Of a DNA stretch of 64,000 nt, positions 1,934 to 47,826 are shown piece after piece. Numbering within the stretch: the stretch's first letter is position 1; each line of letters starts with the position of its first letter. The notes under the pieces are model-generated. The model did not search any database. It was not told the origin of the DNA and was given only the letters and a program-made list of their open reading frames with translations. The stretch lies in the NCBI RefSeq assembly GCF_058153355.1, contig NZ_CM177019.1, one strand, 5' to 3'. The position numbers were made by a program, and so were the translations under genes.

Positions 1934-2583
1934 ACTCCCTCCTTCTGCGGTACAAAGCGCACGCTGTCTCCCGGACGTAATAAGATGGGTTCGTCACGCG
2001 CCGGATCAAACAGGCTGAGTGAGGTATGACCAATCAACTGCCAGCCGCCCGGCGTTGCCAGCGGATAAACACCGGTCTGCGGCCCGCCGATCCCGACAGA
2101 ACCTGCCGGAACGAGCAAGCGCGGTTCAGCGCGCCGTGGCGTGTGTAGTTGTTCCGGCAAACTCCCGAGATACGGGAAGCCCGGTTGAAAACCTAAAAAC
2201 CAGACCACGTATTCCACAGAGGAGTGCAATTCAACAACCTGTTTTTCGCTCAATCCACAATGCGCCGCGACCACCGCCAAATCCGGTCCGCCTGCGCCAC
2301 CGTAAACCACCGGAATTTCAATAAAACGAGACTCCGGCTCCAGCGCCTCACTCTCCTCCCACCAGCGTTGCAAACGCTCTATGGCATCCAGCGCCAGCGA
2401 CTCAGGATTACGTAAAATCACCGTGATATTGTTCATGCCGGGAATGGCTTCAACCACATTCGGCATATCCACCAGACGCTGCGCCAGTCGCCAGATCCGT
2501 TTCTGGCTAGCCAGCGTCACCGGCGGTTCCAGCTCCAGCACTACCGCCGTTTCACCTATCAGATAACAACGCGCTCGTTGCAC
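1927..2583 (-). CDS. pxpB: 5-oxoprolinase subunit B (KipI-like)
   Basis: 218-aa ORF; first gene of the pxpBCA operon. Confidence 0.85.
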
Positions 2584-2605
2584 TTTCGATCCCTCTGATT
2601 ATTCG

Positions 2606-3349
2606 TTATGCAGGATTAGGAATATCAATAAAGGTCACATCAAGATCGGTATTTTCATTCAGCCACTCGCTCAATGCGCGAATACCACCGCGTTCAGTGG
2701 CATGGTGACCCGCAGCATAAAAATGCAATCCCTGCTCGCGGGCTGAATGAATGGTCTGTTCAGAAACTTCGCCAGTAATAAAAGCATCCACGCCAAAACG
2801 CGCGGCGCTATCGATAAAACTCTGCCCGCCGCCCGTGCACCAGGCAACGCGCTGAACCACCTCAGGTCCGGTATCGCCACACCATAACGGCTTACGACCC
2901 AGACGCGCTTCAATCCAGGAAGCCAGCTCCAGTCCCGGCACAGGCATGGTCAGTTCGCCCCACGGCACCAACGGCTCAATTTCGCCCAAGACCGTAATCC
3001 CAAGTAACGCCGCCAGCTGTGCGTTATTGCCCAGCTCTGGATGTGCGTCAAGCGGCAAATGCCAGCCATACAGGTTGATATCATTCGCCAGCAACGTTTT
3101 TAAACGGTTACGCTTCATGCCGCGAATTACCGGGGATTCGCCTTTCCAGAAGTAGCCATGATGCACAATGACCGCATCCGCGCCCAGACGCACCGCTTCA
3201 TCGAGCAAAGCCTGGCTGGCGGTGACACCGGTAACAATTTTTTGCACCGTCTCTTTGCCTTCCACCTGCAAACCATTCGGCGCGTAATCACTAATCGCCG
3301 CGCTGTTCAGTTTTTCGTTAATCAGTTGTTCCAGTTCGATGTTTTTCAT
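2606..3349 (-). CDS. ybgI: Nif3-family metal-binding protein (GTP cyclohydrolase 1 type 2 homolog)
   Basis: 247-aa ORF directly upstream of pxpB on the same strand; recognised YbgI sequence. Confidence 0.85.
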   Translation of the reverse strand: MKNIELEQLINEKLNSAAISDYAPNGLQVEGKETVQKIVTGVTASQALLDEAVRLGADAVIVHHGYFWKGESPVIRGMKRNRLKTLLANDINLYGWHLPLDAHPELGNNAQLAALLGITVLGEIEPLVPWGELTMPVPGLELASWIEARLGRKPLWCGDTGPEVVQRVAWCTGGGQSFIDSAARFGVDAFITGEVSEQTIHSAREQGLHFYAAGHHATERGGIRALSEWLNENTDLDVTFIDIPNPA

Positions 3350-3436
3350 CTTCGCGCCTTCCGTATTCTGATAGCTACACCGTTAACATAGCGTTACCTC
3401 GCCTGTTCGTCGATAGCCAATCTTTTGACATATTAA

Positions 3437-5101
<1,665 letters not shown>

Positions 5102-5116
5102 CAGGTCAGCACCGAT

Positions 5117-5149
5117 GCCTGATAAGACGCTCGCTGCGTTTTATCAGGC
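5117..5149. terminator. Hairpin between convergent dtpD and phr (gcctgataa ... ttatcaggc), likely bidirectional terminator / REP-like
   Basis: Perfect 9-bp inverted repeat with 15-nt loop located between two convergent stops. Confidence 0.5.
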
Positions 5150-6562
5150 TCCTTTCCTCGCTTCTTCGTACGCTGCCAGCGTTCGCAGCCTTGCCTCTTT
5201 GTGATCAACTATCGGTTGCGGATAATCCAGCGTCACACCTGCTTTCTGCGCCCACTTCCACGGTTCATGCACCGCTTTCCCTGGTACATCACGCAACTCT
5301 GGTAACCACTGGCGGATAAACTCACCTTCGTGGTCAAATTTCTCGCCCTGAGTTGTCGGGTTGAAAATACGGAAATACGGTGCAGCATCAGTTCCAGTAG
5401 AAGCCGCCCATTGCCAGCCACCGTTATTGGCTGCCAAATCACCATCAATCAGTTGCGACATGAAATATCGCTCGCCTTCCCGCCAGTCGATCAGCAAATC
5501 TTTCACCAGAAAACTGGCAGTAATCATCCGCAGGCGATTATGCATCCAGCCAGCGCTGTTAAGCTGACGCATGGCCGCATCAACAATCGGGTATCCCGTT
5601 TTGCCTTCCTGCCAGGCCTTTAAATGCGCGGGATTGCTTTGCCACTGTACGCGATCGGTCCAGGCAATAAAGGGGCGATGCTTACACAGTGACGGGTGAT
5701 ACGTCATCAAATGACGGTAGAACTCGCGCCAGATCAGCTCATTAAGCCAGACGCTACCCGGTCCGCCTTCCAGCGCCTGCGGCTGTTCCGCCAACAGGCG
5801 ATGCAGACACTGGCGAGGCGATAACCTACCCGTTGCAAGGCTTGCAGACAAACGGCTGGTGCCTTCCACTGCCGGAAAATCACGCTGCTGATCGTACTGA
5901 CTCGCACCGTTCTGGCAAAACTGGCGTAATTGCGCAATCGCCGCTTTTTCTTCCACCGGGAAATGCGCGGTATCGAAAGACTGACGAGGGTAATTCAGCG
6001 TAATAGATGGCGCGGGATCTAATGATCCGCTACTCCGAACTTTTGGCGCAGCGACGCACTCCGGCATCCCTTCCCGCAGCCGTTTCAGCCAGGCATTCTT
6101 AAAAGGCGTAAAGACTTTGTACATCTCATGATTGCCAGTCATCACCGCCCCCGGCGGCAGGATCACGCTGTCATCGAACCCTTCACACACCACGTTACTC
6201 AGCGCTCTTTCAACTTCCACATCCCGCGCCCGCTCATTCACCTCATACTGATAGTTATAAAACAGATGGGTAACACGATTTTCCGCGCACACCTGTTTAA
6301 CTATTTCGACGCTGGCGGCAAAGTCATCCACTTCATGAAACAGCAAAGGAATGCCTTTTTCCGCCAGCGCGATTTGTAGCCCGTTCAGTTGTGCATTGAT
6401 AAATTCAGCCTGACGCGGCGACATATTATGCGCCGCCCACTGGCGTGGTGTAGCGATATACAACGCCAGCACGCGTGCAGACGAATAGCGGCAAGCGGCC
6501 GCCAGCGCGAGATTATCATGCAGACGTAAATCCTGGCGAAACCAGACCAGATGGGTAGTCAT
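5144..6562 (-). CDS. phr: Deoxyribodipyrimidine photolyase
   Basis: 472-aa ORF with C-terminal FAD-binding region (WQWAASTGTDAAPYFRIFNP). Confidence 0.9.
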   Translation of the reverse strand: MTTHLVWFRQDLRLHDNLALAAACRYSSARVLALYIATPRQWAAHNMSPRQAEFINAQLNGLQIALAEKGIPLLFHEVDDFAASVEIVKQVCAENRVTHLFYNYQYEVNERARDVEVERALSNVVCEGFDDSVILPPGAVMTGNHEMYKVFTPFKNAWLKRLREGMPECVAAPKVRSSGSLDPAPSITLNYPRQSFDTAHFPVEEKAAIAQLRQFCQNGASQYDQQRDFPAVEGTSRLSASLATGRLSPRQCLHRLLAEQPQALEGGPGSVWLNELIWREFYRHLMTYHPSLCKHRPFIAWTDRVQWQSNPAHLKAWQEGKTGYPIVDAAMRQLNSAGWMHNRLRMITASFLVKDLLIDWREGERYFMSQLIDGDLAANNGGWQWAASTGTDAAPYFRIFNPTTQGEKFDHEGEFIRQWLPELRDVPGKAVHEPWKWAQKAGVTLDYPQPIVDHKEARLRTLAAYEEARKGA

Positions 6563-7113
6563 AAAACTCCTGCATGGCGCAAGTTAATCACCCGCGGCCA
6601 AAGTTCGAAATAACGCTGCTCTGAAAGCCAGGCGTCAGGATAAAGCGCCATATAGTGTTTGATACGCATCAGCGGCGCAAGAAGCGGTTGCTCGCCACGG
6701 CGATAACTGTCGATAAGCGCCGCCAGCTGCTGGCGTTCTGTGGAATCAATATGTGGGCGAAAATAACCCTGAACGTGCATCAAAACGTTGGTGTGATCGC
6801 GCGGGTTGGCGGGATGAGAAAGCAAAACAATGACGCGTTGGCGGTACTGGTTGTAATAGTCATCCAGATTTTGCCACTGGTGAATATCAGCCACAAACGG
6901 GCCAAGTTTGCGGTATTCCGGCTGGGAATGAGCCAGAAAGACGAGTTTATAGCGGCTGTGATAATCGTTGAGCGCCCCGCGCGTTAAGCCATGTTCTTTC
7001 AGTCGATGTAACTCATAAAGCGCGAAGATACGGATTAAAGTGCTTTCATCAAATCGTTGCTGATTCATTACTGCTCCTGAACGGTTTACAGGAGTAAGTG
7101 TAGACGTTGGCAA
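6559..7113 (-). CDS. ybgA: DUF1722 protein YbgA (co-transcribed with phr)
   Basis: ORF whose stop overlaps phr start by 4 bp; true start may be an internal ATG (K-12 protein is shorter than the 184-aa maximal ORF). Confidence 0.7.
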   Translation of the reverse strand: MPTSTLTPVNRSGAVMNQQRFDESTLIRIFALYELHRLKEHGLTRGALNDYHSRYKLVFLAHSQPEYRKLGPFVADIHQWQNLDDYYNQYRQRVIVLLSHPANPRDHTNVLMHVQGYFRPHIDSTERQQLAALIDSYRRGEQPLLAPLMRIKHYMALYPDAWLSEQRYFELWPRVINLRHAGVL

Positions 7114-7128
7114 ATGATGTTTGTGAAG

Positions 7129-7986
7129 TTAATCCTGTTGTAGCAGGGCAAGATTACGAAAGCACGCTCCCCGCAAGGACTGACGCCAGGTAGTTTCTGT
7201 CCATGGCTGCCCTTTCCATTCACACGTGAAATCAATAAGTTCATCAGGGACATCGCAAACAATGTGAAGACGGATTTCTTCTCTGCCGTGACTCTTTTCA
7301 CTAATTGCGTAACTGTCATGCTCTGGATTATTTAATTCTTTCAGTGAGAATTTTTCCTCAAAGGCTTTATTTAGCCGCCCCTGGTTTCCTTTTACAGCGA
7401 ATAAATAATCACCTCCCTGTTTTTGTATCTTCTCTGCAATATCTTTCTGGCAACCCATCGCATCAGTTGTGATGATTTTTCCTTTAATATCCAGCATGTT
7501 AAGAAGTTCAGGGATAGCTGTAATTTCATTTGATTTCTCATCCGTCCTGATCTGTCCGATGACCAGACTGTGCATTGTTGAGAACGCACTAATGACATGA
7601 ATCGCTCCCCTGCAGCGACTCTTGTCATAAGAATGCCGGAGCTTTTTTCCATCAATTGCAATGACGTCTTTATCATCTGAAGAATGGCAGTCACGCATCC
7701 AGTTAATAAAGCACTCGTGAAATTTTGCAGGACTGATACAGGATACAACTCTGGCAATGGTATCGTGAACAGGAATACCATTTTCAAAATCACCCTATTG
7801 CTTCAAAAAATCGAGATGTGTTTCCCCAAAATCCTCTATATCTTCTCAACCTTCTGCACCCGAAATAACGGCGCAAATAGTCAACAGTAGAATATCCGAT
7901 AATTTATGTTCCACTTTCCAGGCTTGTCTGTAATCGGGGATAATAGAAATATGTTCCATCAATTTTTTAAGTACCATTTTGTTCTC
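7129..7986 (-). pseudogene. Decayed H-repeat (ISAs1-family) transposase: frameshifted and internally deleted
   Basis: N-terminus [43 protein letters not shown] then stop; body in two overlapping frames (7392-7793 and 7129-7698); the canonical C-terminal peptide [12 protein letters not shown] appears out of frame after ...EWKG, indicating an internal deletion. Confidence 0.8.
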
Positions 7987-8370
7987 CTTAATTATGTAAG
8001 GAGTATTTGATCATGTATAAGCAATAAAAAACAGCTTCAGGTAATGAGGAATATCTCAATTTTTAAACATAAAATGCGAATTGTTTAGTACAAAAAAGCA
8101 GCGTTACGTGATCTTTTCCTGCCATGGGTCTTTACCACAGCAGCTGGGGTTGTTTGGGACCGACTTCCGACAGCAGATCCCGGTGAGCCTGCCACCATCT
8201 CTTCACAAGCTTATGCTTATTACATGCAAAACGTCCCGTTTTGCATCTTTGTGCCTACGGCACACGATGATCTTTCCCTGAGGAGTCATACTTTGTTAGG
8301 ATAAAAAACCTTTAAATAGCTTTCCTACCTTCCAATAAAAACCACAGAATCAGCAATGTTTAAATTTCAA

Positions 8371-9192
8371 TCAGTATTGAGTTTCATTTGTGATCTCTAC
8401 ATTCACTCCTGATGGCTTCTCGCTAAATAAATATCTCATACTCTCATTCTCCATAATCACGGATATATTTAACCCTCCATGAATCCATTGATATGTAATA
8501 TTTTTATCATCAATCTTATAACTAAAATTCCCAATTGGTAACTTTTCCTTCAGATAATTATTCTCCTCATAACTAAGTGCTAGTAATTTATCATAGGCAC
8601 CTTTTAAATCAAAACCCTCAAAATAGCAATGTTCTTTTGATGAACCATCAAATTCTTTTCTGGGATTAGCATCATGACACCAAGTCGACCATTTTTCTTT
8701 TTTTTCCTCAGAAGTATGTTTTTTTTCATTGAAAAACAGCACATAATATTTCTCTGGGATTATTATCTGATCATTAATTTTTAAGATATCTCTATATGGC
8801 CCAGGACATTTATGAACAGAATCCATAATGGATATTTCTTCAGGAAAAAGTTTGCCTTCATGTTTAAATAATTTCCTGTACATACCAACTGTTGTTTGTG
8901 ATAAGTAATATGACAAGGGCTTTTTTTTAACTTCAACATAGTCAGTCGAGCATACGAGACTATTTTCCAATGAATAATCATTTATCGTTAGCTTTCGCCC
9001 ATCCATATTTATCACTACCTTACTGTATGTTTCATCAAGGGCACTTATTATAAGCGAATCATGTTTACCAAAAACATCGATATCTGAAACATTATGATAA
9101 ATCCATACGGTATTTTTAGTATTATCATTAGAATATGCGATACCATGAATAAAAAAAATCATTAGAAAGCCCATAAAAAATTTACCGCGCAT
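8371..9192 (-). CDS. Secreted (signal-peptide) protein of unknown function; candidate immunity protein for the upstream effector
   Basis: 273-aa ORF, N-terminal hydrophobic signal peptide (MRGKFFMGFLMIFFIHGIAYS), very AT-rich and K/N/E-rich; AAGGA ribosome-binding site; starts 19 bp after the effector stop. Confidence 0.6.
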   Translation of the reverse strand: MRGKFFMGFLMIFFIHGIAYSNDNTKNTVWIYHNVSDIDVFGKHDSLIISALDETYSKVVINMDGRKLTINDYSLENSLVCSTDYVEVKKKPLSYYLSQTTVGMYRKLFKHEGKLFPEEISIMDSVHKCPGPYRDILKINDQIIIPEKYYVLFFNEKKHTSEEKKEKWSTWCHDANPRKEFDGSSKEHCYFEGFDLKGAYDKLLALSYEENNYLKEKLPIGNFSYKIDDKNITYQWIHGGLNISVIMENESMRYLFSEKPSGVNVEITNETQY

Positions 9193-9211
9193 ACAAATTC
9201 CTTAATGTAAA

Positions 9212-11977
9212 TCAATGTGATGAATCATAAACATTATTCAAAAATAGATTTTGTTCTTTTCGGCGTCGTATAACAAGGCCAGCAACTCCGCCATTTGTAA
9301 TATCAAGAAATTCATTGGAGGCACCTATATAATCCTTTTGATTAAGTTTAGAATTCAAATTCGGTGCCTTACTCATGCTCCCCATATTAAACAATAAACT
9401 TATTAACGCATCAAATTCGTACTGATATAAATCCACACTCACTGTTCTTTTAAGCTCACTAACAAAACCAGATAAACGCTCTTCAAATAACTCATCAGCT
9501 TTAGCAATTGTTATTCCATGCTGAAATTCTTCTGGTAAAACTATATCATTGCAACGTTGTGTAGCAATTAAATGTCCATAACCTATAGTACAGTAACCTT
9601 CTGAATCATTATATGCTGTTAGTTGTAAATATTCCCATTCTTTTATAAAACCCTTACCTTTATTTGATACATTCAAATCTGCAATGGCGATCCTTTCAGC
9701 AGTTTGTTCTTCGTTAAAACTATTGATGTACCCCTCCATCAATATATCAATTGGATCATGTAAATCATCCCGTCTATAAAATGGAGGTATTTGTGTATTA
9801 TTCGGCGGAGGCGCTCCATTGTTTCCTGGATAGTATTCAAAATGCAACATATAAACCACTTCTTCCCCAGGGATTATAACTGGAGGCCTCCCTGTATCAG
9901 GTTTAATCATCAACCCTGTTTTGGCAATTATTGCCCCTTGCATAATATGATCATTAATCTTTACTAAAATACTTGATGGATCAACTTCACCATACCGCAC
10001 ATAGAAATGCCGACCATCTCTAGTCGAGTGCTCAATCGTAACTTGCCAAGTACCGTAATAGTATCGAGAAATAGCTCTTACTATTCCGTTGCAAACCGAA
10101 ACAATATCAGACTTCGGTTCCGTATATAGATCACGCGCTCCATGTTTTCTATTACCATTATTACGATTTCGTCCAAATATAGCTTGAGAGGCATTTCGAT
10201 CTGTCAAGGCAGCAGCCCAAAAATAATTTTTCCACTTTCCATTTTTGTCATTATTAGGTTTTACTTTTAAAGGAAAAATAATTTGATTTGATTTTTTCTG
10301 AGATAATGAATCTAAAAACACAACCGGATGAAAATGCCACACAGCATCATCACTATTAAACGGAGATACCCCGCTCATCCACTCCAGATCCAGCTGCCAC
10401 TTCTCACAGTATGCCACTTCCTCTGTATCCAGATCTTTATAAAATCCTTCCCACCGCCCTGTCGAGCGCCCTCCGTACCATTCGCTGTGGTGTTTAACTA
10501 TCAGATGATTCACCACATTTCTCACCAGTGGTTCACGCACGATCAGCGCCTGTCTGATCTCTTCCTCCGTCACTTTTCCATCACCGTCCTGATCCATACC
10601 CGCCATCAGCTCACGATAAAAGGGCGGTACCTGCTCATACAGCCACTCATCTCCCTGTTCTGCGGCACGGCTTATTGAGTCAAACGCTTCCGGCACCCAT
10701 CCTTCGTACGGGCTGTACGTCATGTCACCGCTGCTGTTCTCCTCCAGCGGTTGAAAACCCAGCTTCAGTAAATCATACTGTCCGGCCTCTTCAACATCCT
10801 TTTGTGGCAGCCAGCCGGTTCCGGTGATATTAAACCACCACTGCTGCGATTCATCCGTGACTGGTGTCGTGGCTTCCCGCGGAAGAACGCGCTGAGCACC
10901 CAGCGTGGCTGCGGTTGCGGTAAATACCTCCTGTCCCGGAACGGCCTGCCGGGTGTATAAAATTATCCCTTTTGGTGCCAGAACAGTCCGTTTTTCTCCC
11001 TTAACGCCTGCCGGGTTGGATAAGAACTTTGGCATATTCGGGTCTGTACTCAGAACCTCCAGATGGACGAACCACTCGCGCTCAATCTCACCGCTTCCCT
11101 CGCCAGGATAATCCTCGCATCCCATAAATCCGACCGGTGTTCCGGCACTGACTTTCCACTCTTCCGTTTCGTCGACCGTCTGTACCGAGTCAAAAATGCC
11201 TTTTGCCTTCGCCTTCTGCATCCACTCAGGCATCAGCATCTGTATTTCGCCATCTGACTCCATCAGATCCGGATCCAGGGTCACCCAGTACTGCTCATTC
11301 CCCGGTTTATTGCCTTCCAGCAGGCGAACCAGTCCGAATGTCGTCAGGACCGGCTGGCCGTTATTGGTCACGTAAAAACGTCCGGTCCGGGATGACACAA
11401 ACCGATCTCCCGCATTAAGTGTCCTGTTTCCGCTGATTTTCGGGGGTATCCAGTACGTGGCATGATCTCCGCTTTCCTGCCCCTCGGGAAGGCCGTTCTT
11501 TCCCGGGATGTATCGGTGCAGCAATATGCCACCATGCCCGGTTTTAACTTTATAGCAGGGGGAGCCGGGATAATCGTTCACCGGGGCCAGATGCATATAG
11601 AGACAGTAAAATTCCAGCCAGCTTTCTTTTTTTTGCGGGTCTGGCTGGCACTGCGATTTCACCAGAACAAATGTGCTGCTGTAACGGAGTTGCTGCCCTT
11701 TGTAGGGGCCTTTCAGGTAATCATTATTTATCCGGTACGCCGCAATGGTGCCATCGGCCATAAACTGAAGAGGAACCGGTTCTCCGGTAGCGGCGGTATC
11801 CGGTTTCAGGGCTGATAACGGATTAGACACGTCACTGATATGTATCCCGCCGTGCCACAGCCCGTTTCCACCCAGCAGCCAGGTTCCGTGCGCTTCTTTG
11901 TCAATAAGCCGCATTATCTCATCCAGTGAGCGAAACTCTTTGCCTTCTTTATCCCTGATGGGATGGCTGATTTTCAT
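9212..11977 (-). CDS. Candidate T6SS cargo effector: multidomain peptidoglycan hydrolase (M23/LytM-like domain plus C-terminal T4-lysozyme-like GH24 domain), with an EF-hand-like loop
   Basis: 921-aa ORF starting 9 bp after the vgrG stop with an AAGGA ribosome-binding site; C-terminus carries the phage-lysozyme signature EWEYLQLTAYNDSEGYCTIGYGHL; middle region has KHGARD (HxxxD) ... YMLHFEY (M23-like); DQDGDGKVTEEE calcium-binding-type loop. Confidence 0.7.
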   Translation of the reverse strand: MKISHPIRDKEGKEFRSLDEIMRLIDKEAHGTWLLGGNGLWHGGIHISDVSNPLSALKPDTAATGEPVPLQFMADGTIAAYRINNDYLKGPYKGQQLRYSSTFVLVKSQCQPDPQKKESWLEFYCLYMHLAPVNDYPGSPCYKVKTGHGGILLHRYIPGKNGLPEGQESGDHATYWIPPKISGNRTLNAGDRFVSSRTGRFYVTNNGQPVLTTFGLVRLLEGNKPGNEQYWVTLDPDLMESDGEIQMLMPEWMQKAKAKGIFDSVQTVDETEEWKVSAGTPVGFMGCEDYPGEGSGEIEREWFVHLEVLSTDPNMPKFLSNPAGVKGEKRTVLAPKGIILYTRQAVPGQEVFTATAATLGAQRVLPREATTPVTDESQQWWFNITGTGWLPQKDVEEAGQYDLLKLGFQPLEENSSGDMTYSPYEGWVPEAFDSISRAAEQGDEWLYEQVPPFYRELMAGMDQDGDGKVTEEEIRQALIVREPLVRNVVNHLIVKHHSEWYGGRSTGRWEGFYKDLDTEEVAYCEKWQLDLEWMSGVSPFNSDDAVWHFHPVVFLDSLSQKKSNQIIFPLKVKPNNDKNGKWKNYFWAAALTDRNASQAIFGRNRNNGNRKHGARDLYTEPKSDIVSVCNGIVRAISRYYYGTWQVTIEHSTRDGRHFYVRYGEVDPSSILVKINDHIMQGAIIAKTGLMIKPDTGRPPVIIPGEEVVYMLHFEYYPGNNGAPPPNNTQIPPFYRRDDLHDPIDILMEGYINSFNEEQTAERIAIADLNVSNKGKGFIKEWEYLQLTAYNDSEGYCTIGYGHLIATQRCNDIVLPEEFQHGITIAKADELFEERLSGFVSELKRTVSVDLYQYEFDALISLLFNMGSMSKAPNLNSKLNQKDYIGASNEFLDITNGGVAGLVIRRRKEQNLFLNNVYDSSH

Positions 11978-11986
11978 GTTCAGTCC

Positions 11987-14186
11987 TTATCGTGAGAATC
12001 TTCCCGGCCGTTGTGGCGGTACCTTATCCTGCTGGGGAGGATCAAAGGCTTCCTGTACACTTTTCCGTGGTGGCTCCGCCCCTTCAGTTCCAGGTCCGCC
12101 ATTGTCATAATCTGCCAGCGCTTTCAAAACCGCCGGTCGTAGCGTCGGCACCGGCGTTCCCGGACTACCGCCGCTATTGAGATTGATTTTCGGCCCGACG
12201 ATGTCCACGCCCCCTGAATGGATGACCACAAACGAACCACCCACCTTTAGGGTGATTTTACCGCCACTCTCCAGTACGATTTCATTCCGGACCTTCATTC
12301 CCAGCGCACCGGTAATCTTCCTCGCCAGGTCGCCCTTCACCTCCAGACTGTGCTTTCCCTCCACCAGGCTGATATGGTTCCCCGTCGTCTTATGCTCCTG
12401 CTTCCCTTCCACCGTCACTTTACGGTCGTTTCTGACATACAGGCCGTCATCGTGACTCACGCTCACCGTCCGGTCATTCGTCACCTTCAGCGTCTGGTCA
12501 TTACGTACCGTTATGCGCCGGTCGTTCGCCACCGTGATACTCTGGTCGTGACCCCCTTCTTTTCTGGTGCCGACCTCAACCGTCTGCCCCTTCACCACCC
12601 TTATCTTCTGGTCGTTACCGATGGTCTCCGTATGGTCATGCTTCACGTCCGTCGTCCGGTCGTTAAGCACCTCCGTGTCCATGTTCTTCTGCGCGTGGAT
12701 ATACACCTGCTCACTGTCCGTCGCATCCTCGAAACGCAGTTCATTAAAGCCGCTTCCTTTATAGGTCTTCGAGCGGATGGTCATCTGCGTCCGCGTGCCC
12801 GGTAAATCCCCCGGTGAACGGTTATCTTCATGGTAGGTCCGCCCCGTCACAATGGGCTGGTCCGGGTCGCCGTTCAGAAAGTCCACTATCACTTCCTGAC
12901 CCACACGCGGTATCGCCAGATTGCCGAACCCCGGTCCCGCCCATGCCTGCGACACCCGTATCCAGCACGAACTCTCCTCCGTCATCCCGTGATAACGGTC
13001 CCAGTGAAACTTCACCCGTACCCGGCCATGCTCGTCGCAGAATATCTCCTCACCCTTCGGCCCGGTCACGATGGCACTCTGCGGGCCGTCCACCTTCGGC
13101 TTCGGCAGCGGCGCGTGACGCCACGTCCTGTCTGCCGGTATCACCTCAAACTGATTGCTCAGTGTCGTCCCTTCACCGTGACTCCCGTGCAGCGCCTGCG
13201 GCTGTTCTCCCCGCAGTGTGCTTCCCACAACCTGCCATTCCCGGTTCAGCGTCTCTGAGGGATGGCCCGTCAGCCGGAACCGCGTTCCCGGCCACAGCCG
13301 CGCCGTGTTACACACCCCGCTCGCCGTCTCCGCCCCGTTCCGCCACCCTTCCGTCTGGTAACGCGCAAAATCCTGGCCATGCTGCTCATCCTTGAAACGC
13401 CCCGGATAATCAAATATCTCGTACTGCGTTCCCTGCCCGTTCAGGCTCTCCCCGTCATGGCTGTAGTACCCCGGCCACCCCGGCGTTTTGAACGTATAAT
13501 CCTGCGTCTCCACCGACGCCACGCTTATCTGCGCACGGTAACGAAACTCACTGATGTACTCCGTCGTTCCCCCGGTCGTGGTATTCGGGTTAAACGCCAG
13601 CGCCCCCATTCCCGTCAGCCCCGCCACGTCATCACACACCGCCAGCTTCTGCTCCGGCCCTTCCTGACCGCAGCGCTCATAAAAGAAGATACCTTCCTCC
13701 GCCCACAGCCGGGTCAGGAATGCCAGGTCGCTCTCCCCGTACTGCACGCAGAACTCCCGCGCCGGGTGCGCCTCATAGAACAGCGGCATCCACGCCGTCA
13801 CCCCGTTCTCTCTCAGAAGCTGTGCTGATATCGTCTGAATGTCCTGCTGCTGGAAGATACGGAAGTTCTGCCGTAACCCTGCCCGCCACAGCGGCGGGCT
13901 GATGCTCAGGGAATAACGCATCTGCCAGTCGTTGTTCTCACCGAGCTGCACCTCCGTCACGATACCGCTGACGTAACGCTGCGGGATATCACCCTGCCAG
14001 ACCGTCAGCACCGCGCTCTTCTCCAGAAAATCCTCCGCCATCAGGTCGGACAGCCCGCTGGCGATATCCACATCCAGGATGAACGACGTGCAGTGGTGCT
14101 GGTACAGACGGAAGCTCACCACCGCCGTCGCCATCTCCACGATACCGTCCACCGACAGCGTGAAACGTAATCCTTCTGAGGACATA
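11987..14186 (-). CDS. vgrG: Type VI secretion spike protein VgrG (gp27/gp5-like)
   Basis: About 733 aa from MSSEGLRFTL; characteristic VgrG N-terminus, gp5-like beta-helix repeats (VTVxNDRxxTV...) and Pro-rich C-terminal tail; the maximal ORF extends 11 codons further upstream. Confidence 0.85.
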
Positions 14187-14360
14187 TAAACCCCATAGCT
14201 ACCGCACTCATGGTGCAAACCATACGGGCTTATAAGAAAGGCTTAAGTGAGATATCTGCCAGATAGCAACTATTAGGAAAATATTTATATATATTTCATG
14301 AATATATATTTCGGTTGGTATAACGGTGTCTAAATATTCCTCTGAACATCTTCCTGATAC

Positions 14361-14394
14361 AAAAAAACCGCCAGCGTCTCCGCTGGCGGTTTTC
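14361..14394. terminator. Rho-independent terminator downstream of ybfA
   Basis: GC hairpin accgccagcg/cgctggcggt flanked by A-run and T-run. Confidence 0.6.
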
Positions 14395-14415
14395 TTTGAA
14401 CGTCATGTTTAGCAA

Positions 14416-14622
14416 TCAGTAAAAATCACCGGTTGCCTTTTCGGCCTGATCCATCCACACCGGTTTATCGCTGGTTTTCGACCAGACGCGATGCAGGTAG
14501 CTGTAAAAGCGGGCGCGGTCTTTCCAGAAAAGCATGAAAGGCAGCGCCAGGACGCCCGCTGCAACCGCATAAGTACGGCGTAAAAAGATAAGCCATGCAG
14601 GATATTCTCTGTAGAGTTCCAT
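14416..14622 (-). CDS. ybfA: DUF2517 small membrane protein YbfA
   Basis: 68-aa ORF recognised as YbfA. Confidence 0.8.
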
Positions 14623-14830
14623 ACTTTTCTCCCCCTTTTGTATCTACCCGGTGAATGGCACCGGAAAAATGAATTTGTTTATCTGATGAAAATAGTACCG
14701 CCTTTTGTGTAATTTTACTACTCATCCGACCACTTATTTTTGCTTATTGATGGTTTATTTACATTCACTCTGTAATTAAGTTACACAAAAGTTAAATTAA
14801 TACTAAACATTAGTTAAATCATGGCTTTTG

Positions 14831-14857
14831 CCATTTTTATACTTTTTTTACACCCCG
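14831..14857 (+). promoter_or_regulatory. T-rich KdpE operator in the kdpFABC promoter
   Basis: ccatttttatacttttttttacacc about 80 bp upstream of kdpF; recalled KdpE binding site. Confidence 0.5.
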
Positions 14858-14934
14858 TCCGCAGATTTTTGCGAAATCTTTGCAGCCAGAATTCTACCCT
14901 TCCGGTATCACTTTTAGGCCACTGGAGGTGCACT

Positions 14935-15024
14935 GTGAGTGCAGGCGTGATAACCGGCGTATTGCTGGTGTTTTTATTACTGGGTTATCTGGTTTATGCC
15001 CTGATCAATGCGGAGGCGTTCTGA
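14935..15024 (+). CDS. kdpF: Kdp-ATPase small subunit KdpF
   Basis: 29-aa hydrophobic peptide [29 protein letters not shown]; GTG start preceded by GGAGG; stop overlaps kdpA start. Confidence 0.8.
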
Positions 15025-16697
15025 TGGCTGCGCAAGGGTTCTTACTGATTGCCACGTTTTTACTGGTATTAATGGTACTGTCGCGTCCTTTAGGCAGCGG
15101 GCTGGCGCGGCTGATTAATGACATACCTCTTCCCGGTACAGCGGGCGTTGAGCGCGTACTTTTTCGTTTACCTGGCGTCTCTGACCGTGAGATGAACTGG
15201 AAGCAGTATCTCTGTGCCATTCTCGGCCTGAACATGCTGGGGCTGGCAGTGCTGTTTTTTATGTTGCTCGGTCAGCACTATCTGCCGCTTAACCCGCAGC
15301 AACTGCCGGGGCTGTCGTGGGATCTGGCGCTGAATACCGCCGTCAGCTTTGTCACGAATACCAACTGGCAATCTTACAGCGGTGAAACCACATTAAGCTA
15401 TTTCAGCCAGATGGTGGGCTTAACGGTACAAAACTTTCTTTCTGCCGCCAGCGGGATTGCGGTGATTTTTGCCCTCATCCGTGCATTTACCCGCCAGAGC
15501 ATGAGCACACTCGGGAATGCCTGGGTCGATCTGCTACGCATCACGTTATGGGTGCTAGTCCCTGTGGCGTTGTTGATCGCACTGTTTTTTATTCAACAAG
15601 GTGCGCTGCAAAACTTTCTGCCCTATCAGGCGGTGAATACCGTTGAAGGAGCGCAACAGCTGTTACCCATGGGGCCTGTAGCTTCTCAGGAAGCGATCAA
15701 GATGCTCGGTACTAACGGCGGTGGCTTCTTTAATGCCAACTCGTCGCATCCGTTTGAAAACCCAACCGCACTGACCAACTTCGTGCAGATGCTGGCGATT
15801 TTCTTGATCCCAACAGCGCTGTGCTTTGCCTTTGGTGAAGTGGCAGGCGATCGCCGCCAGGGGCGCATGTTGCTGTGGGCGATGTCAGTGATTTTTGTCA
15901 TCTGCGTAGGCGTGGTGATGTGGGCAGAAGTTCAGGGTAATCCTCATCTGCTGGCGCTGGGTGCGGACAGCAGCATCAATATGGAAGGTAAAGAGAGCCG
16001 TTTCGGCGTGCTGGTCAGTAGCCTGTTTGCGGTCGTGACTACAGCGGCTTCCTGTGGCGCGGTGATTGCGATGCATGATTCGTTTACCGCTCTCGGCGGC
16101 ATGGTGCCGATGTGGCTGATGCAAATTGGTGAAGTGGTGTTCGGCGGTGTCGGTTCTGGTCTTTACGGCATGATGCTGTTTGTCCTGCTGGCGGTGTTTA
16201 TTGCTGGGCTGATGATTGGTCGTACGCCGGAATATCTGGGTAAAAAAATCGACGTACGCGAGATGAAACTGACCGCACTGGCGATTCTGGTCACTCCAAC
16301 GCTGGTACTGATGGGCGCAGCACTGGCGATGATGACCGACGCCGGACGTAGCGCCATGCTCAACCCTGGCCCGCATGGTTTTAGCGAAGTGCTGTACGCC
16401 GTGTCATCCGCCGCTAACAACAACGGCAGCGCCTTTGCCGGATTAAGCGCCAACTCTCCGTTCTGGAACTGTTTACTGGCGTTCTGCATGTTTGTCGGTC
16501 GCTTCGGGGTGATTATCCCGGTAATGGCAATTGCCGGTTCGCTGGTGAGTAAAAAGAGCCAACCCGCCAGCTCCGGCACGCTGCCAACGCACGGCCCGCT
16601 GTTTGTTGGCCTGTTAATCGGCACCGTGTTGCTGGTTGGCGCACTGACCTTTATCCCTGCCCTGGCGCTTGGTCCGGTGGCGGAATATCTCTCCTGA
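15024..16697 (+). CDS. kdpA: Potassium-transporting ATPase subunit A
   Basis: 557 aa from [12 protein letters not shown]...; the six-frame ORF over-extends upstream. Confidence 0.9.
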
Positions 16698-16719
16698 TGA
16701 TATTGAGTGAGCACTGAAT

Positions 16720-18768
16720 ATGAGTCGTAAACAACTGGCGCTATTCGAACCAACACTTGTCGTTCAGGCGCTGAAAGAAGCGGTGAAAAAATTAAACCCG
16801 CAGGCGCAATGGCGCAATCCGGTGATGTTTATCGTCTGGATCGGCAGTCTGCTGACCACCTGTATTAGCATCGCGATGGCAAGCGGCGTGATGCCTGGCA
16901 ATGCGCTGTTTAGCGCGGCAATTAGCGGCTGGCTGTGGGTCACCGTACTGTTCGCTAATTTCGCCGAGGCGCTGGCAGAAGGCCGCAGTAAAGCGCAGGC
17001 CAACAGTCTGAAAGGGGTGAAAAAAACTGCCTTTGCCCGCAAGCTGCGTGAGCCGAAATATGGCGCTGTGGCAGACAAAGTTCCTGCCGATCAACTGCGT
17101 AAAGGCGATATCGTACTAGTAGAAGCTGGCGATATTATCCCCTGCGATGGTGAAGTCATTGAAGGGGGTGCATCGGTCGATGAAAGCGCCATCACTGGGG
17201 AATCGGCACCGGTGATCCGTGAATCCGGTGGCGATTTTGCCTCCGTCACTGGCGGCACGCGTATTCTTTCTGACTGGCTGGTGATTGAGTGCAGCGTTAA
17301 CCCCGGTGAGACATTTCTGGATCGGATGATCGCGATGGTGGAAGGCGCGCAGCGACGTAAAACGCCGAACGAGATTGCCCTGACCATTCTGCTGATTGCC
17401 CTGACTATCGTCTTTTTACTGGCAACCGCCACGCTGTGGCCGTTTTCCGCGTGGGGCGGTAATGCAGTCAGCGTAACGGTACTGGTGGCGCTGTTGGTCT
17501 GTCTGATCCCAACCACTATTGGCGGCCTGTTGTCAGCGATCGGCGTCGCCGGAATGAGTCGGATGCTGGGCGCGAATGTGATTGCCACCAGCGGACGTGC
17601 AGTTGAAGCGGCGGGCGACGTGGACGTCCTGCTGCTGGATAAAACCGGCACCATCACACTCGGTAACCGTCAGGCATCAGAGTTTATCCCTGCGCAGGGC
17701 GTAGAGGAAAAAACGCTGGCCGACGCAGCACAACTGGCTTCGCTGGCCGACGAAACGCCGGAAGGCCGCAGTATTGTGATCCTCGCCAAGCAGCGTTTTA
17801 ACCTGCGCGAGCGCGATGTGCAGTCGCTTCACGCCACTTTTGTACCGTTTACTGCGCAAAGTCGAATGAGCGGGATCAATATCGACAACCGTATGATCCG
17901 TAAAGGTTCTGTCGATGCCATTCGCCGCCATATTGAAGCTAACGGTGGTCACTTCCCTGCCGATGTCGATCAAAAAGTCGATCAGGTTGCGCGTCAGGGG
18001 GCCACGCCTCTGGTAGTGGTGGAAGGTTCCCGCGTGCTGGGCGTTATTGGGCTGAAAGATATCGTCAAAGGCGGCATTAAAGAGCGCTTCGCCCAACTGC
18101 GCAAAATGGGCATTAAAACGGTGATGATTACCGGTGATAACCGTCTGACTGCCGCCGCGATAGCTGCGGAAGCGGGTGTCGATGATTTTCTCGCCGAAGC
18201 GACACCGGAGGCCAAGCTGGCATTGATTCGTCAGTATCAGGCGGAAGGCCGTTTGGTGGCGATGACCGGCGACGGCACCAACGATGCTCCGGCGCTGGCG
18301 CAGGCAGATGTCGCGGTAGCGATGAACTCCGGCACTCAGGCGGCGAAAGAAGCGGGCAATATGGTGGATCTCGACTCTAACCCGACCAAGTTGATCGAGG
18401 TGGTGCATATTGGCAAACAGATGCTGATGACCCGTGGCTCGCTCACTACCTTCAGCATCGCCAACGATGTGGCGAAATACTTCGCCATTATTCCGGCGGC
18501 GTTCGCGGCAACGTATCCGCAGTTAAATGCGCTGAACATCATGCGCCTGCATTCGCCCGACTCCGCCATTCTCAGTGCGGTCATTTTCAACGCCTTGATT
18601 ATCGTCTTTTTGATTCCCCTGGCGTTAAAAGGCGTGAGTTATAAACCGCTTACCGCTTCTGCCATGTTGCGCCGTAACTTATGGATTTACGGTCTGGGTG
18701 GGCTGCTGGTGCCGTTTATTGGTATCAAAGTCATTGATTTACTGCTGACCGTTTGCGGTCTGGTGTGA
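16720..18768 (+). CDS. kdpB: Potassium-transporting P-type ATPase subunit B
   Basis: 682 aa; P-type ATPase motifs DKTGTIT and [12 protein letters not shown]. Confidence 0.95.
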
Positions 18769-18776
18769 GGTTTACC

Positions 18777-19349
18777 ATGAGTGGATTACGTCCGGCATTA
18801 TCAACATTTCTCTTTTTGTTACTGATTACTGGCGGTGTTTACCCGCTGCTGACCACCGCGCTGGGGCAATGGTGGTTTCCCTGGCAGGCCAATGGTTCGT
18901 TGATTCGCGAAGGTGATACGGTGCGCGGCTCGGCATTAATCGGGCAGAATTTTACCGGCAACGGCTATTTTCATGGTCGCCCGTCGGCAACGGCAGAAAT
19001 GCCCTATAATCCACAGGCTTCTGGCGGGAGCAATCTGGCGGTCAGTAACCCTGAGCTGGATAAACAAATCGCTGCACGCGTTGCCGCATTACGGGCCGCT
19101 AACCCGGACGCCAGCACGAGCGTTCCGGTTGAACTGGTGACGGCGTCAGCAAGCGGGCTGGACAATAACATTACCCCGCAAGCGGCGGCCTGGCAGATTC
19201 CTCGCGTGGCGAAAGCGCGTAATCTCAGCGTTGAACAGCTCACGCAGCTGATCGCAAAATATAGCCAACAACCGCTGGTGAAATATATCGGCCAGCCGGT
19301 CGTCAACATTGTCGAACTCAATCTGGCGCTGGATAAGCTTGATGAATAA
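18777..19349 (+). CDS. kdpC: Potassium-transporting ATPase subunit C
   Basis: 190 aa from [11 protein letters not shown]... Confidence 0.9.
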
Positions 19350-22026
19350 CGAACCCTTACGTCCCGACCCCGATCGTCTGCTGGAACAAACTGCCGCGCC
19401 GCACCGGGGGAAGCTGAAAGTTTTTTTCGGTGCCTGTGCAGGCGTCGGGAAGACCTGGGCGATGCTGGCAGAAGCCCAACGACTGCGGGCGCAAGGGCTG
19501 GATATTGTGGTTGGCGTGGTTGAAACTCACGGACGGAAAGATACCGCCGCAATGCTGGAAGGGCTGGCTGTTCTGCCGCTAAAACGCCAGGCGTACCGTG
19601 GGCGGCATATCAGCGAGTTTGATCTCGATGCCGCCCTCGCCCGCCGTCCGGCGCTGATCTTAATGGACGAACTGGCGCACAGTAATGCGCCAGGTTCTCG
19701 TCATCCTAAACGCTGGCAGGACATTGAAGAGCTGCTGGAAGCAGGCATTGATGTTTTCACTACCGTCAACGTTCAGCATCTGGAAAGTCTGAATGATGTG
19801 GTCAGTGGCGTCACCGGAATTCAGGTACGGGAAACCGTGCCCGATCCTTTTTTTGATGCTGCCGACGACGTGGTGCTGGTGGACTTGCCCCCGGACGATC
19901 TGCGCCAGCGGCTGAAAGAAGGCAAAGTCTATATTGCCGGGCAGGCGGAGCGCGCCATTGAACACTTTTTCCGCAAAGGCAATCTGATCGCCCTGCGCGA
20001 ACTGGCACTGCGCCGTACTGCCGATCGCGTAGATGAGCAAATGCGCGCCTGGCGGGGGCATCCTGGCAAAGAGAAAGTCTGGCACACGCGCGACGCGATC
20101 CTTTTATGTATTGGGCATAACACCGGCAGCGAAAAACTGGTCCGCGCGGCGGCGCGGTTGGCGTCACGGCTGGGGAGCATCTGGCACGCGGTGTATGTTG
20201 AAACCCCTGCCCTGCACCGCTTACCGGAGAAAAAACGTCGGGCAATTCTCAGCGCCTTACGTCTGGCGCAGGAGCTGGGCGCGGAGACGGCAACACTTTC
20301 TGATCCAGCGGAAGAGAAAGCGGTAGTGCGTTATGCCCGTGAACATAATCTCGGCAAGATTATTCTCGGTCGCCCGGCCTCGCGCCGCTGGTGGCGTCGG
20401 GAAACGTTTGCTGACCGACTGGCGCGAATCGCCCCCGATCTCGATCAGGTGCTGGTCGCGCTTGATGAACCACCCGCCCGCACGATTAACAACGCGCCGG
20501 ATAGCCGCTCTTTTAAAGACAAGTGGCGGGTACAGATTCAGGGATGCGTGGTTGCCGCCGCGTTATGCGCCGTTATCACCTTAATTGCCATGCAGTGGCT
20601 GATGGCGTTTGATGCCGCCAACCTAGTGATGCTGTATCTGCTTGGCGTGGTGGTGGTGGCGCTATTTTATGGACGCTGGCCTTCGGTGCTTGCTACCGTC
20701 ATTAATGTGGTGAGTTTCGATCTCTTTTTTATCGCCCCACGCGGCACGCTCGCCGTCTCTGATGTGCAGTATCTGCTGACTTTCGCGGTGATGTTAACCG
20801 TCGGGCTGGTGATCGGGAATCTTACTGCTGGCGTACGTTATCAGGCGCGGGTAGCCCGTTACCGCGAGCAACGCACACGACACTTATATGAAATGTCGAA
20901 AGCTCTGGCTGTGGGACGCAGTCCGCAGGACATCGCCGCCACCAGCGAACAATTTATTGCTTCCACGTTTCATGCCCGCAGTCAGGTGTTGTTGCCCGAT
21001 GACAACGGCAAATTGCAGCCGTTGACACATCCGCAAGGAATGACGCCGTGGGACGATGCCATCGCGCAATGGAGTTTTGATAAAGGCCTGCCTGCGGGCG
21101 CGGGCACCGACACGTTACCCGGTGTGCCATACCAGATTTTGCCGTTAAAAAGCGGCGAGAAAACCTACGGACTGGTGGTGGTGGAACCGGGGAATCTGCG
21201 CCAGTTGATGATCCCGGAACAGCAACGCCTGCTGGAGACGTTCACGCTGTTAGTTGCCAATGCCCTGGAACGCCTGGCACTGACCGCCAGCGAAGAACAG
21301 GCGCGGATGGCAAGCGAACGAGAACAGATCCGCAACGCCCTGCTGGCGGCGCTTTCGCATGATTTACGCACGCCGCTTACGGTGCTGTTCGGTCAGGCAG
21401 AAATCTTAACGCTCGATCTGGCAAGCGAAGGATCGCCTCACGCCCGCCAGGCCAGCGAGATTCGTCAGCATGTGCTGAACACGACCCGACTGGTGAATAA
21501 TCTACTGGATATGGCGCGAATTCAGTCCGGCGGCTTTAATTTGAAGAAAGAGTGGTTAACGCTGGAAGAAGTGGTCGGCAGCGCGCTGCAAATGCTGGAA
21601 CCGGGTTTATCCTCGCCCATCAACCTTTCTCTGCCAGAACCGCTGACCTTAATCCACGTTGACGGGCCACTCTTTGAACGGGTGCTGATTAATCTGCTGG
21701 AGAACGCGGTGAAATACGCGGGTGCGCAGGCCGAAATTGGTATCGATGCCCACGTTGAGGGCGAAAATCTACAACTGGATGTCTGGGATAACGGCCCCGG
21801 TCTTCCACAAGGCCTGGAGCAGGCGATATTCGATAAGTTTGCTCGTGGAAATAAAGAGTCGGCGGTGCCGGGCGTTGGGCTTGGGCTGGCAATTTGTCGG
21901 GCGATTGTGGATGTACACGACGGCACCATTACCGCGTTCAACCGACCGCAAGGTGGTGCCTGTTTTCGTGTTACACTTCCCCAGCAAACTGCCCCTGAAC
22001 TTGAAGAATTTCATGAGGATATGTGA
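19342..22026 (+). CDS. kdpD: Sensor histidine kinase KdpD
   Basis: 894 aa from [14 protein letters not shown]; histidine-kinase H-box (LSHDLRTPL) and ATPase motifs; start overlaps kdpC stop. Confidence 0.9.
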
Positions 22027-47448: not shown

Positions 47449-47826
47449 GAAAGGCGGTACTGCCCCGGAGAAATCCGGGGCTGTTTCAGTTATTGAGCTG
47501 CTTGTTGATTCTCATATGCAGTAAGGAAATGTTCCGGGTTTGCCACATCACTGTTTGACAACTCATCACTGTAGGCCAGTACTTCATAGATTAATTTCCT
47601 ACCACTATTGTTGAATTCCGAATTTCATCCTGTATGACAAAAGAATGGCTGTAGGGTGGGGAAAAAACACAAAGTAAACAATAATTGACGAATATAGCGC
47701 CACGCTGTTCGCAACCTAACCAAACAGTCACTTTCGAGCAATTTTCCTTGAAAAAGAGGTTGACGCTGCAAGGCTCTATACGCATAATGCGCCCCGCAAC
47801 GCCGATAAGGTATCGCGAAAAAAAGA

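Follow-up and report, generated by a model that had tools for sequence, protein, structure and literature searches.

The stretch of DNA analysed here (hereafter the window) comprises 64,000 nucleotides of contig NZ_CM177019.1 from RefSeq assembly GCF_058153355.1, and within it an accessory island of 7.25 kb, at approximately 7107-14360, lies between ybgA and ybfA. A first-pass annotation, made from the letters alone, had drawn attention to positions 14187-14415, just upstream of vgrG, as a curved, AT-rich, A/T-alternating tract likely to be an island promoter subject to silencing by nucleoid proteins. The spacer between ybfA and vgrG spans 230 bp (14186-14415) and is composite. Read along the minus strand, it consists of a terminator, a 144-bp leader, and a 31-nt 5′ UTR. 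The genes and the main parts of the spacer are, in the direction of transcription:

14416..14622, minus strand, coding sequence of ybfA (DUF2517), with its stop codon TGA at 14418-14416; Pfam PF10725, E = 2.9e-34; annotated ybfA in K-12 and other E. coli
14361..14389, minus strand, predicted intrinsic (Rho-independent) terminator of ybfA, from an inverted repeat and RNA fold
14361..14364, no strand, left junction of the accessory island, inside the T-run of the terminator, from the alignment to the empty site of E. coli ECO20
14217..14360, minus strand, AT-rich leader module, 144 bp, 32% GC, common to the ybfA-rhsC spacers of K-12 and O157
14186..14216, minus strand, vgrG-specific 5′ UTR GCACCATGAGTGCGGTAGCTATGGGGTTTAT, 31 nt, with a GGGG Shine-Dalgarno-like run at 14194-14191
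11987..14185, minus strand, vgrG (732 aa), the first cargo gene, with its ATG at 14185-14183; Pfam Phage_GPD (2.2e-74), Phage_base_V, and Gp5_trimer_C
9212..11977, minus strand, 921-aa effector; Phage_lysozyme, and a Peptidase_M23 match just under the Pfam cutoff
8371..9192, minus strand, 273-aa ORF, putative immunity gene, from the ORF list and without a Pfam match

The island was delimited by comparison with E. coli ECO20, an empty-site strain in which ybfA adjoins ybgA-phrB and which aligns to 2115-7106 and 14361-19500 of the window. At the junction, about 10 nt of the empty site are replaced. Because the island lacks direct repeats at its ends, none having been seen, and no integrase was found within it, only a remnant of an ISAs1-type transposase, an att-type integration site is unlikely. 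In E. coli MFDS1022581 the first cargo gene bears the annotation tssI/VgrG. The island contains no rhs core, and neither the leader module nor vgrG has a second copy within the 64-kb window. The proposal that the AT-rich tract was horizontally acquired is borne out by the alignment, since the tract forms the first 144 bp of the island and homology to the ECO20 empty site resumes at 14361.

The part of the spacer nearest to ybfA is a GC-rich hairpin. A stem arm CCGCCAGCG (14389-14381), a GAGA loop, a second stem arm CGCTGGCGG (14376-14368), and a run of seven U residues (14367-14361) follow one another, and the stem is perfect, 9 bp long, GC-rich, and starts 26 nt past the ybfA stop codon. The RNA of 14350-14420 (71 nt) folds with a predicted energy of -30.3 kcal/mol (z = -5.6), a value not matched by any of 200 shuffled sequences. 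The hairpin is conserved whether or not the island is present, in ECO20 as in every island-bearing strain. A consensus terminator scan did not flag it. An Rfam search of 13500-15200 at E ≤ 1 returned only sub-threshold matches, to the same hairpin, at 22-25 bits against gathering cutoffs of 39-59, and a known structured RNA or sRNA family was rejected on this basis. We conclude that 14389-14361 is a predicted strong intrinsic terminator of ybfA. The ybfA transcript would end there, and the island would be insulated from ybfA transcription. This hairpin (14368-14389) had been overlooked by the first-pass annotation even though it lies within the interval described. A 39-aa ORF with a TTG start (14296-14415) crosses both the terminator hairpin and the island junction and was judged spurious. 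On the other side of the spacer, the candidate fold of the vgrG 5′ UTR (14225-14140) is unremarkable (z = -0.02), and no leader structure was found there.

The A/T-alternating tract itself is real. The 34-nt string quoted for it occurs once, at 14281-14314, and two of the three strictly alternating A/T runs of at least 8 nt in the 64 kb fall in the spacer. GC content is 38.4% over 14187-14415 against 51.1% for the window (5.6th percentile among windows of equal length), 31.9% over the leader (14217-14360), and 23% over 14260-14320 (0.7th percentile among windows of that size). TpA density over 14260-14320 is 0.20 against 0.045 window-wide, a value reached by 0.05% of 61-bp windows, and the TpA peak of the entire 64-kb window lies at 14262. 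The claim that this DNA is unlike the neighbouring core intergenic DNA holds for the TA alternation and fails for base composition, as the core ybfA-kdpF spacer (14623-14936) is equally AT-rich at 36% GC with a TpA density of 0.086. The description of the tract as curved was not sustained. Its AA/TT periodicity at 10-11 bp is ordinary (65th percentile overall and 38th among AT-rich windows), as judged by simple periodicity instead of a full curvature (wedge) model, and the A-tracts are not phased, their centres being spaced by 4.5, 10, 15, 24, 30.5, and 27.5 bp. Among the properties expected of a xenogeneic promoter, horizontal acquisition and AT-richness (32% vs 51% GC) were thus found and phased A-tracts were not.

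The leader starts exactly at the island junction, and comparison with other genomes shows where it belongs. Over 14217-14360 it shares 91.7% identity with the ybfA-rhsC spacer of K-12 and matches that of O157 at about 92%, and its 3′ half (74 bp) also matches the yibF-rhsA spacer; a TAAATA..TT core can still be found upstream of rhsB and rhsD in K-12. Identity to K-12 is lower in the leader than in the ybfA-kdpF spacer (98.4%) or ybfA itself (97.6%), consistent with the leader module having had a history of its own. Homology to K-12 stops at 14217, and rhs-led versions carry a different 44-45 nt in place of the vgrG-specific UTR. The leader was detected in 3,884 of 5,426 complete E. coli genomes (~72%), with a median of two places per genome, and also in E. 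albertii, E. whittamii, and Escherichia sp. MOD1-EC7003. The leader heads an rhs core gene in almost all genomes; the junction to the present vgrG type occurs in only three of the 5,426 complete E. coli genomes and also in E. whittamii. In MOD1-EC7003, vgrG has been deleted and the leader and vgrG-specific UTR are retained. In a metagenome contig (L024), the same vgrG 5′ UTR follows a yibF-type leader, with an equivalent breakpoint 44 nt before the would-be rhsA start. This distribution and the breakpoint of the metagenome contig argue that the leader is a shared module, while the cargo and the last 31-45 nt of UTR vary. By homology, the spacer is best described as the predicted ybfA terminator followed by a conserved RhsA/RhsC-type leader, which here heads a putative vgrG-effector-immunity cassette. 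The membership of the tract in a multi-copy family of Rhs-element leaders with a BglJ-RcsB-type box had escaped the first-pass annotation.

Within the leader, conservation and motif searches single out four further features:

14272..14307, minus strand, 36-nt core ATATATTCATGAAATATATATAAATATTTTCCTAAT, invariant in 8/8 ybfA-locus orthologues, E. albertii included
14270..14291, minus strand, predicted BglJ-RcsB-type box TATATAAATATTTTCCTAATAG, centred at 14277.5, from a motif match
14284..14305, plus strand, second, weaker box-like match TTTATATATATTTCATGAATAT, 16.0 bits, third best in the window, overlapping the first box
14219..14246, minus strand, candidate weak core promoter, with -35 TTAAGC (14246-14241), a 16-nt spacer, and -10 TATGGT (14224-14219), start at about 14211-14214

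The 36-nt core covers most of the quoted A/T-alternating tract, and its region holds an imperfect palindrome, ATATATATT/AATATATAT, around TCATG (14287-14309). When paralogous loci are included, a 19-nt run at 14290-14272, ATATAAATATTTTCCTAAT, remains invariant in 10/10 leaders and is the longest such run in the alignment. Elsewhere in the module, sequences from different species and paralogous loci have diverged by 8-11%. The A/T-alternating tract is the most constrained part of the spacer and the most conserved non-coding block of the locus.

The conservation bears directly on the idea that the tract is non-functional boundary DNA and that vgrG, if expressed at all, depends on transcripts running on from ybfA. 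Both genes point in the same direction and lie only 230 bp apart, there is no consensus promoter between them, and the module, taken whole, has diverged further than the core genes on either side, all of which would fit. Read-through would nevertheless have to pass the strong predicted terminator between the two genes, non-functional DNA would not be expected to hold an invariant core of 19-36 nt in a module 8-11% diverged elsewhere, and the leader is kept before different cargos, even after the loss of vgrG in MOD1-EC7003. We regard this explanation as distinctly improbable.

If the leader is a promoter, it is not an obvious one. A sigma-70 consensus scan of 13900-15000 returned no hexamer pair of at least 9/12 at a spacing of 16-18 bp, and in a sigma-70 PWM scan the best pair reached 6.3 bits, with no strong pair kept in position. 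The candidate pair TTAAGC-16-TATGGT scores only 5.4 bits. The T, A, and final T of its -10 hexamer are kept in all leaders (TATGGT, TAGGGT, or TAGAGT), and an alternative -10 hexamer, TATAAG (14236-14231), would place the start near 14224. The break in homology between rhs-led and vgrG-led versions, at 14217, falls at about the predicted start. No start sites at the K-12 rhsC, rhsA, and rhsB positions appear among the Cappable-seq entries listed, and rhs and ybfA are absent from the SMRT-Cappable-seq supplements. The constitutive RpoD promoters found by genomic SELEX include the rhsD and rhsE spacers, each flagged for H-NS, but not the ybfA-rhsC spacer of K-12 (PMC3946193). The lack of a sigma-70 consensus, together with the absence of the K-12 spacer from the list of constitutive RpoD promoters, fits an activator-dependent promoter.

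The reading of the tract as an island promoter therefore survives in part: the tract is island-borne and precedes vgrG in the same direction, while no sigma-70 consensus promoter was found and curvature gained no support. In its simplest form this reading would make the tract an ordinary sigma-70 promoter in curved AT-rich DNA, one that works unaided and is held off just by H-NS bound to that DNA. The surroundings agree with H-NS involvement. In K-12, the orthologous locus around rhsC lies, at low resolution, in a transcriptionally silent and protein-occupied region (PMC8282354), and H-NS SELEX sites have been flagged at the neighbouring kdpF-ybfA spacer as well as at the rhsD and rhsE spacers (PMC3946193). 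The tract itself is AT-rich, TpA-rich, and horizontally acquired. Such a promoter is at odds with the scans, which returned no hexamer pair of 9/12 and a best PWM score of about 6 bits, and with the missing RpoD SELEX signal in the K-12 ybfA-rhsC spacer (PMC3946193) and the lack of A-tract phasing at 10-11 bp. A self-active sigma-70 promoter is, in our view, unlikely. Binding of H-NS to the TpA-rich tract is a separate matter and is plausible from its composition and context; the best likeness to the high-affinity H-NS motif TCGATAAATT is CCGAAATATA, with 6/10 positions by eye. The vgrG DNA bordering the AT-rich tract is 58-66% GC, and a short AT-rich tract beside DNA of this composition is an atypical substrate for an H-NS filament.

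A different sigma factor was also considered. If the leader held a sigma-E (RpoE) promoter, envelope stress would induce the island, and an RpoE SELEX peak of intensity 5.6 between ybfA and rhsC has been reported for K-12 W3110 (PMC5493296); its map position, 728638, corresponds to about 14340 of the window by our own coordinate conversion. The best match to GGAACTT-N15-17-TCAAA/TCTGA/TCTAA is nonetheless only 8/12 (9/12 in K-12), and 259 window positions score at least 9. The resolution of SELEX-chip is coarse, and AT-rich DNA binds holoenzymes non-specifically. Control by sigma-E is extremely unlikely.

The invariant run offers a more specific candidate. The BglJ-RcsB box was defined by Salscheider, Jahn and Schnetz (NAR 2014; PMC3950696) with the core wwTTCykA and resembles the right half of the RcsAB box. 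In that study the boxes in K-12 rhsA and rhsB were FIMO predictions, the genes were only “putative” microarray targets, and rhsC and vgrG-led versions go unmentioned (PMC3950696). In the window, the predicted box at 14291-14270 has a core, TTTTCCTA (14281-14274), that fits wwTTCykA, and its RcsB-type half faces vgrG in the usual orientation, with TTCCTAA toward that gene. Distances from box to start range from 52 to 79 bp in the published targets (PMC3950696), and the starts predicted from the two weak -10 hexamers, 66 bp (TATGGT) and 53 bp (TATAAG) from the box centre, both fall inside this range.

To score the match, the motif was rebuilt from the upstream regions of leuO, bglG, ynbA, ynjI, molR (yehF), ygiZ, sfsB, ykiA, yidL, and yecT. 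A 22-nt PWM was derived from nine K-12 target sites with wwTTCykA, yidL being omitted because the core match is absent there. The bgl site was recovered 76 bp upstream of the P2 start, as in PMC3950696, by our own conversion between genome versions. With this matrix, 14291-14270 scores 18.4 bits and ranks first among 127,958 window positions on both strands; in leave-one-out scoring, seven of the nine training sites reach 17.7-25 bits. The training sites were picked from the upstream regions of published targets, not from the mapped sites of PMC3950696, a concern lessened, and not removed, by an unbiased Gibbs sampler run on the same ten regions, which returned the same motif with eight of the same sites and ranked the window box second. 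The score of the box falls to 12.6 bits when an AT-rich background is assumed, and it is then surpassed by one other site of the window, 47609-47626. A random AT-rich 144-mer reaches 18.4 bits with P of about 0.002-0.003, and elsewhere in the window AT-rich stretches score at most 13.4 bits. The box is retained in every homologous leader, at 16.7-21.3 bits. The longest invariant run of the leader family matches the BglJ-RcsB box by sequence and is a predicted activator box. The second, inverted match at 14284-14305 is held with low confidence, as its TTC core is out of register, and it may just reflect the A/T alternation.

The same conservation could have another cause. The 36-nt core may be held constant by a different factor, such as a regulator of the TTCATGAA palindrome, RcsB with another partner, IHF, or Fis, or it may serve as a homology anchor for cassette exchange, with the BglJ-RcsB match being incidental. 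At the ybfA locus, invariance reaches 17 nt upstream of the box and covers the palindrome, and the inverted second match overlaps the box. For the homology anchor, the same breakpoint between leader and cargo at two loci means that recombination in or beside the leader does happen. The paralogous leaders (rhsA, rhsB), however, keep the 19-nt box part and not the palindrome, the box ranks best or second among some 128,000 positions, and no candidate factor was identified for TTCATGAA. This alternative appears improbable.

Together, these observations make an activator-dependent, probably H-NS-silenced promoter in an Rhs/VgrG leader, with a start at about 14211-14224, moderately likely. From motif, context, and conservation we infer promoter activity, the start position, H-NS binding, and dependence on BglJ-RcsB alike. 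The island begins in the T-run of the predicted ybfA terminator, and its first 144 bp are the RhsA/RhsC-type leader that heads the vgrG cassette. Under the proposed mechanism, this leader would carry the promoter. The leader promoter would most likely be activator-dependent and silent under ordinary conditions, with the TpA-rich tract around the box as a plausible nucleation site for H-NS/StpA. BglJ-RcsB is made only once LeuO lifts H-NS repression of yjjQ-bglJ and would then counter the silencing; BglJ-RcsB is known to antagonize H-NS/StpA repression at bgl and yidL (PMC3950696). Bound at 14291-14270, it would recruit RNA polymerase at the leader, as at bgl, leuO, and yidL, and drive the weak core promoter 53-66 bp downstream, from a start near the boundary between leader and UTR.

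To our knowledge, laboratory growth leaves Rhs and orphan vgrG islands silent, and we know of no signals that switch them on in E. coli. The present analysis gives the vgrG island a testable control region with a defined edge, a predicted insulating terminator, an invariant block of 19-36 nt, and a named candidate activator. As the same leader stands before rhsC and rhsA in ~72% of complete E. coli genomes, results obtained with K-12 rhsC or rhsA, for which constitutive bglJ strains exist, would probably transfer to this island. More broadly, we hypothesize, tentatively and with considerable doubt, that Rhs/VgrG islands across Escherichia share a portable promoter module that is silenced by H-NS and activated by BglJ-RcsB downstream of LeuO, and that rhs-led and vgrG-led cassettes are swapped at or beside its start point. 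If this were true, very different toxins would inherit the same regulatory input, and most orphan contact-dependent toxin loci of E. coli would be coordinated through BglJ, a single cryptic regulator. In other respects a regulatory leader of AT-rich DNA bordering an accessory island is the kind of feature to be expected and leaves current understanding unchallenged; the useful addition is a specific activator hypothesis for the leader of Rhs/Vgr elements.

Several known systems resemble this arrangement. The hcp3-vgrG3 spacer of EHEC, termed h3R, likewise lies upstream of a vgrG, and in it the terminator of the gene before is paired with a distinct promoter or regulatory region (PMC13141884). 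It belongs to an H-NS-repressed EHEC T6SS for which other candidate regulators have been proposed (PMC13141884, 2026). The likeness drawn here is one of architecture, and whereas h3R is located inside a core T6SS cluster after hcp, the spacer of the window borders an orphan island and follows a core gene. H-NS-silenced xenogeneic promoters such as bgl and proU, and EPODs, offer a second comparison. The tract is likewise AT-rich, TpA-rich, and horizontally acquired, and the orthologous K-12 locus likewise sits in a silent, highly occupied domain, but the AT-rich stretch of the window is only ~144 bp long, has GC-rich coding flanks, and is without A-tract phasing.

The established targets of BglJ-RcsB (bgl, leuO, molR, sfsB, ygiZ, ynbA, ynjI, ykiA, and yidL) share with the window box the wwTTCykA core, the T/A-rich 5′ half, and the gene-facing orientation, and the window box scores comparably to the training sites. 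Several of these targets are H-NS/StpA-repressed loci of unknown or accessory function. In contrast to the K-12 targets, the window box is a prediction from a sequence match. The closest relatives of the leader are those of the K-12 Rhs elements. The RhsC leader (ybfA-rhsC) occupies the same chromosomal position, directly past the ybfA terminator, with 91.7% identity, and the RhsA leader (yibF-rhsA) matches the 3′ half of the window leader. By its homology to the rhsC and rhsA spacers the window leader is that of an Rhs element, although the ORF that directly follows it is vgrG instead of an rhs core. The K-12 leaders continue into a 44-45-nt rhs-specific UTR and an rhs core, whereas that of the window continues into the 31-nt vgrG UTR and the vgrG-effector-immunity cassette.

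Core genes of the window are only about 96-98% identical to those of E. coli K-12, and 94-95% identical to those of E. whittamii and Escherichia sp. MOD1-EC7003; judged from these identities, the window probably derives either from a divergent lineage of E. coli or from a close relative. Identity to K-12 is 97.6% for ybfA itself and 77% over 14361-14415, and the 20-odd nucleotides from the ybfA stop codon to the terminator stem (14390-14415) differ from K-12 but are the same as in the empty-site strain E. coli ECO20. Because this segment is unlike K-12 but like ECO20, the sequence comparison suggests past recombination exactly at the ybfA 3' end.

Segment 14361-14396 contains a hairpin whose stem is 9 bp long and GC-rich and whose loop measures 4 nt; U7 follows it (fold z=-5.6), and a consensus terminator scan returned nothing on either strand across these positions. 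Since a U7 hairpin went unflagged despite this z-score, the consensus scan gives false negatives.

The accessory island that begins beyond the hairpin, with vgrG as its first cargo gene, carries the following features:

7107-14360: island; cargo atypical of E. coli
Next after vgrG: 921-aa effector; its Peptidase_M23 match falls slightly short of the Pfam cutoff, and it also has an EF-hand-like motif and, at the C terminus, a phage-lysozyme domain
After the effector: AT-rich 273-aa ORF without a Pfam match; putative immunity gene
7129-7698, after the 273-aa ORF: ISAs1 remnant

A vgrG 5' end of the window type was found in only 5 of 5,426 complete E. coli genomes. The three complete E. coli genomes with the vgrG arrangement of the window came from cattle, an animal-source food and a Tibetan pig.

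Outside the island, a second BglJ-RcsB-type match, ACTATTGTTGAATTCCGAATTT, lies at 47604-47626 (+), ranking second in the window with the matrix rebuilt from K-12 BglJ target regions (16.2 bits) and first with the unbiased Gibbs matrix (13.6 bits). The match is intergenic, between ORFs with ends at 47448 and 48685, a gap that is probably the asnB-ubiF region.

MOD1-EC7003 (10040-10200 of its locus) keeps the AT-rich leader module and the vgrG-specific 5' UTR, and vgrG has been lost through a deletion that starts immediately upstream of the start codon; the small AT-rich ORFs that now lie downstream of the leader are possibly orphan immunity genes. In 2 of the 30 genomes in the spread listing, homology to the window ends 1-3 nt past the ybfA stop codon (window 14412-14414). 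E. coli R12 has different DNA in place of the usual ybfA terminator (4215-5005 of its locus), comprising an AT-rich sequence of about 790 bp that is followed by an RHS gene, and this R12-type junction is a third junction type at the ybfA hotspot.
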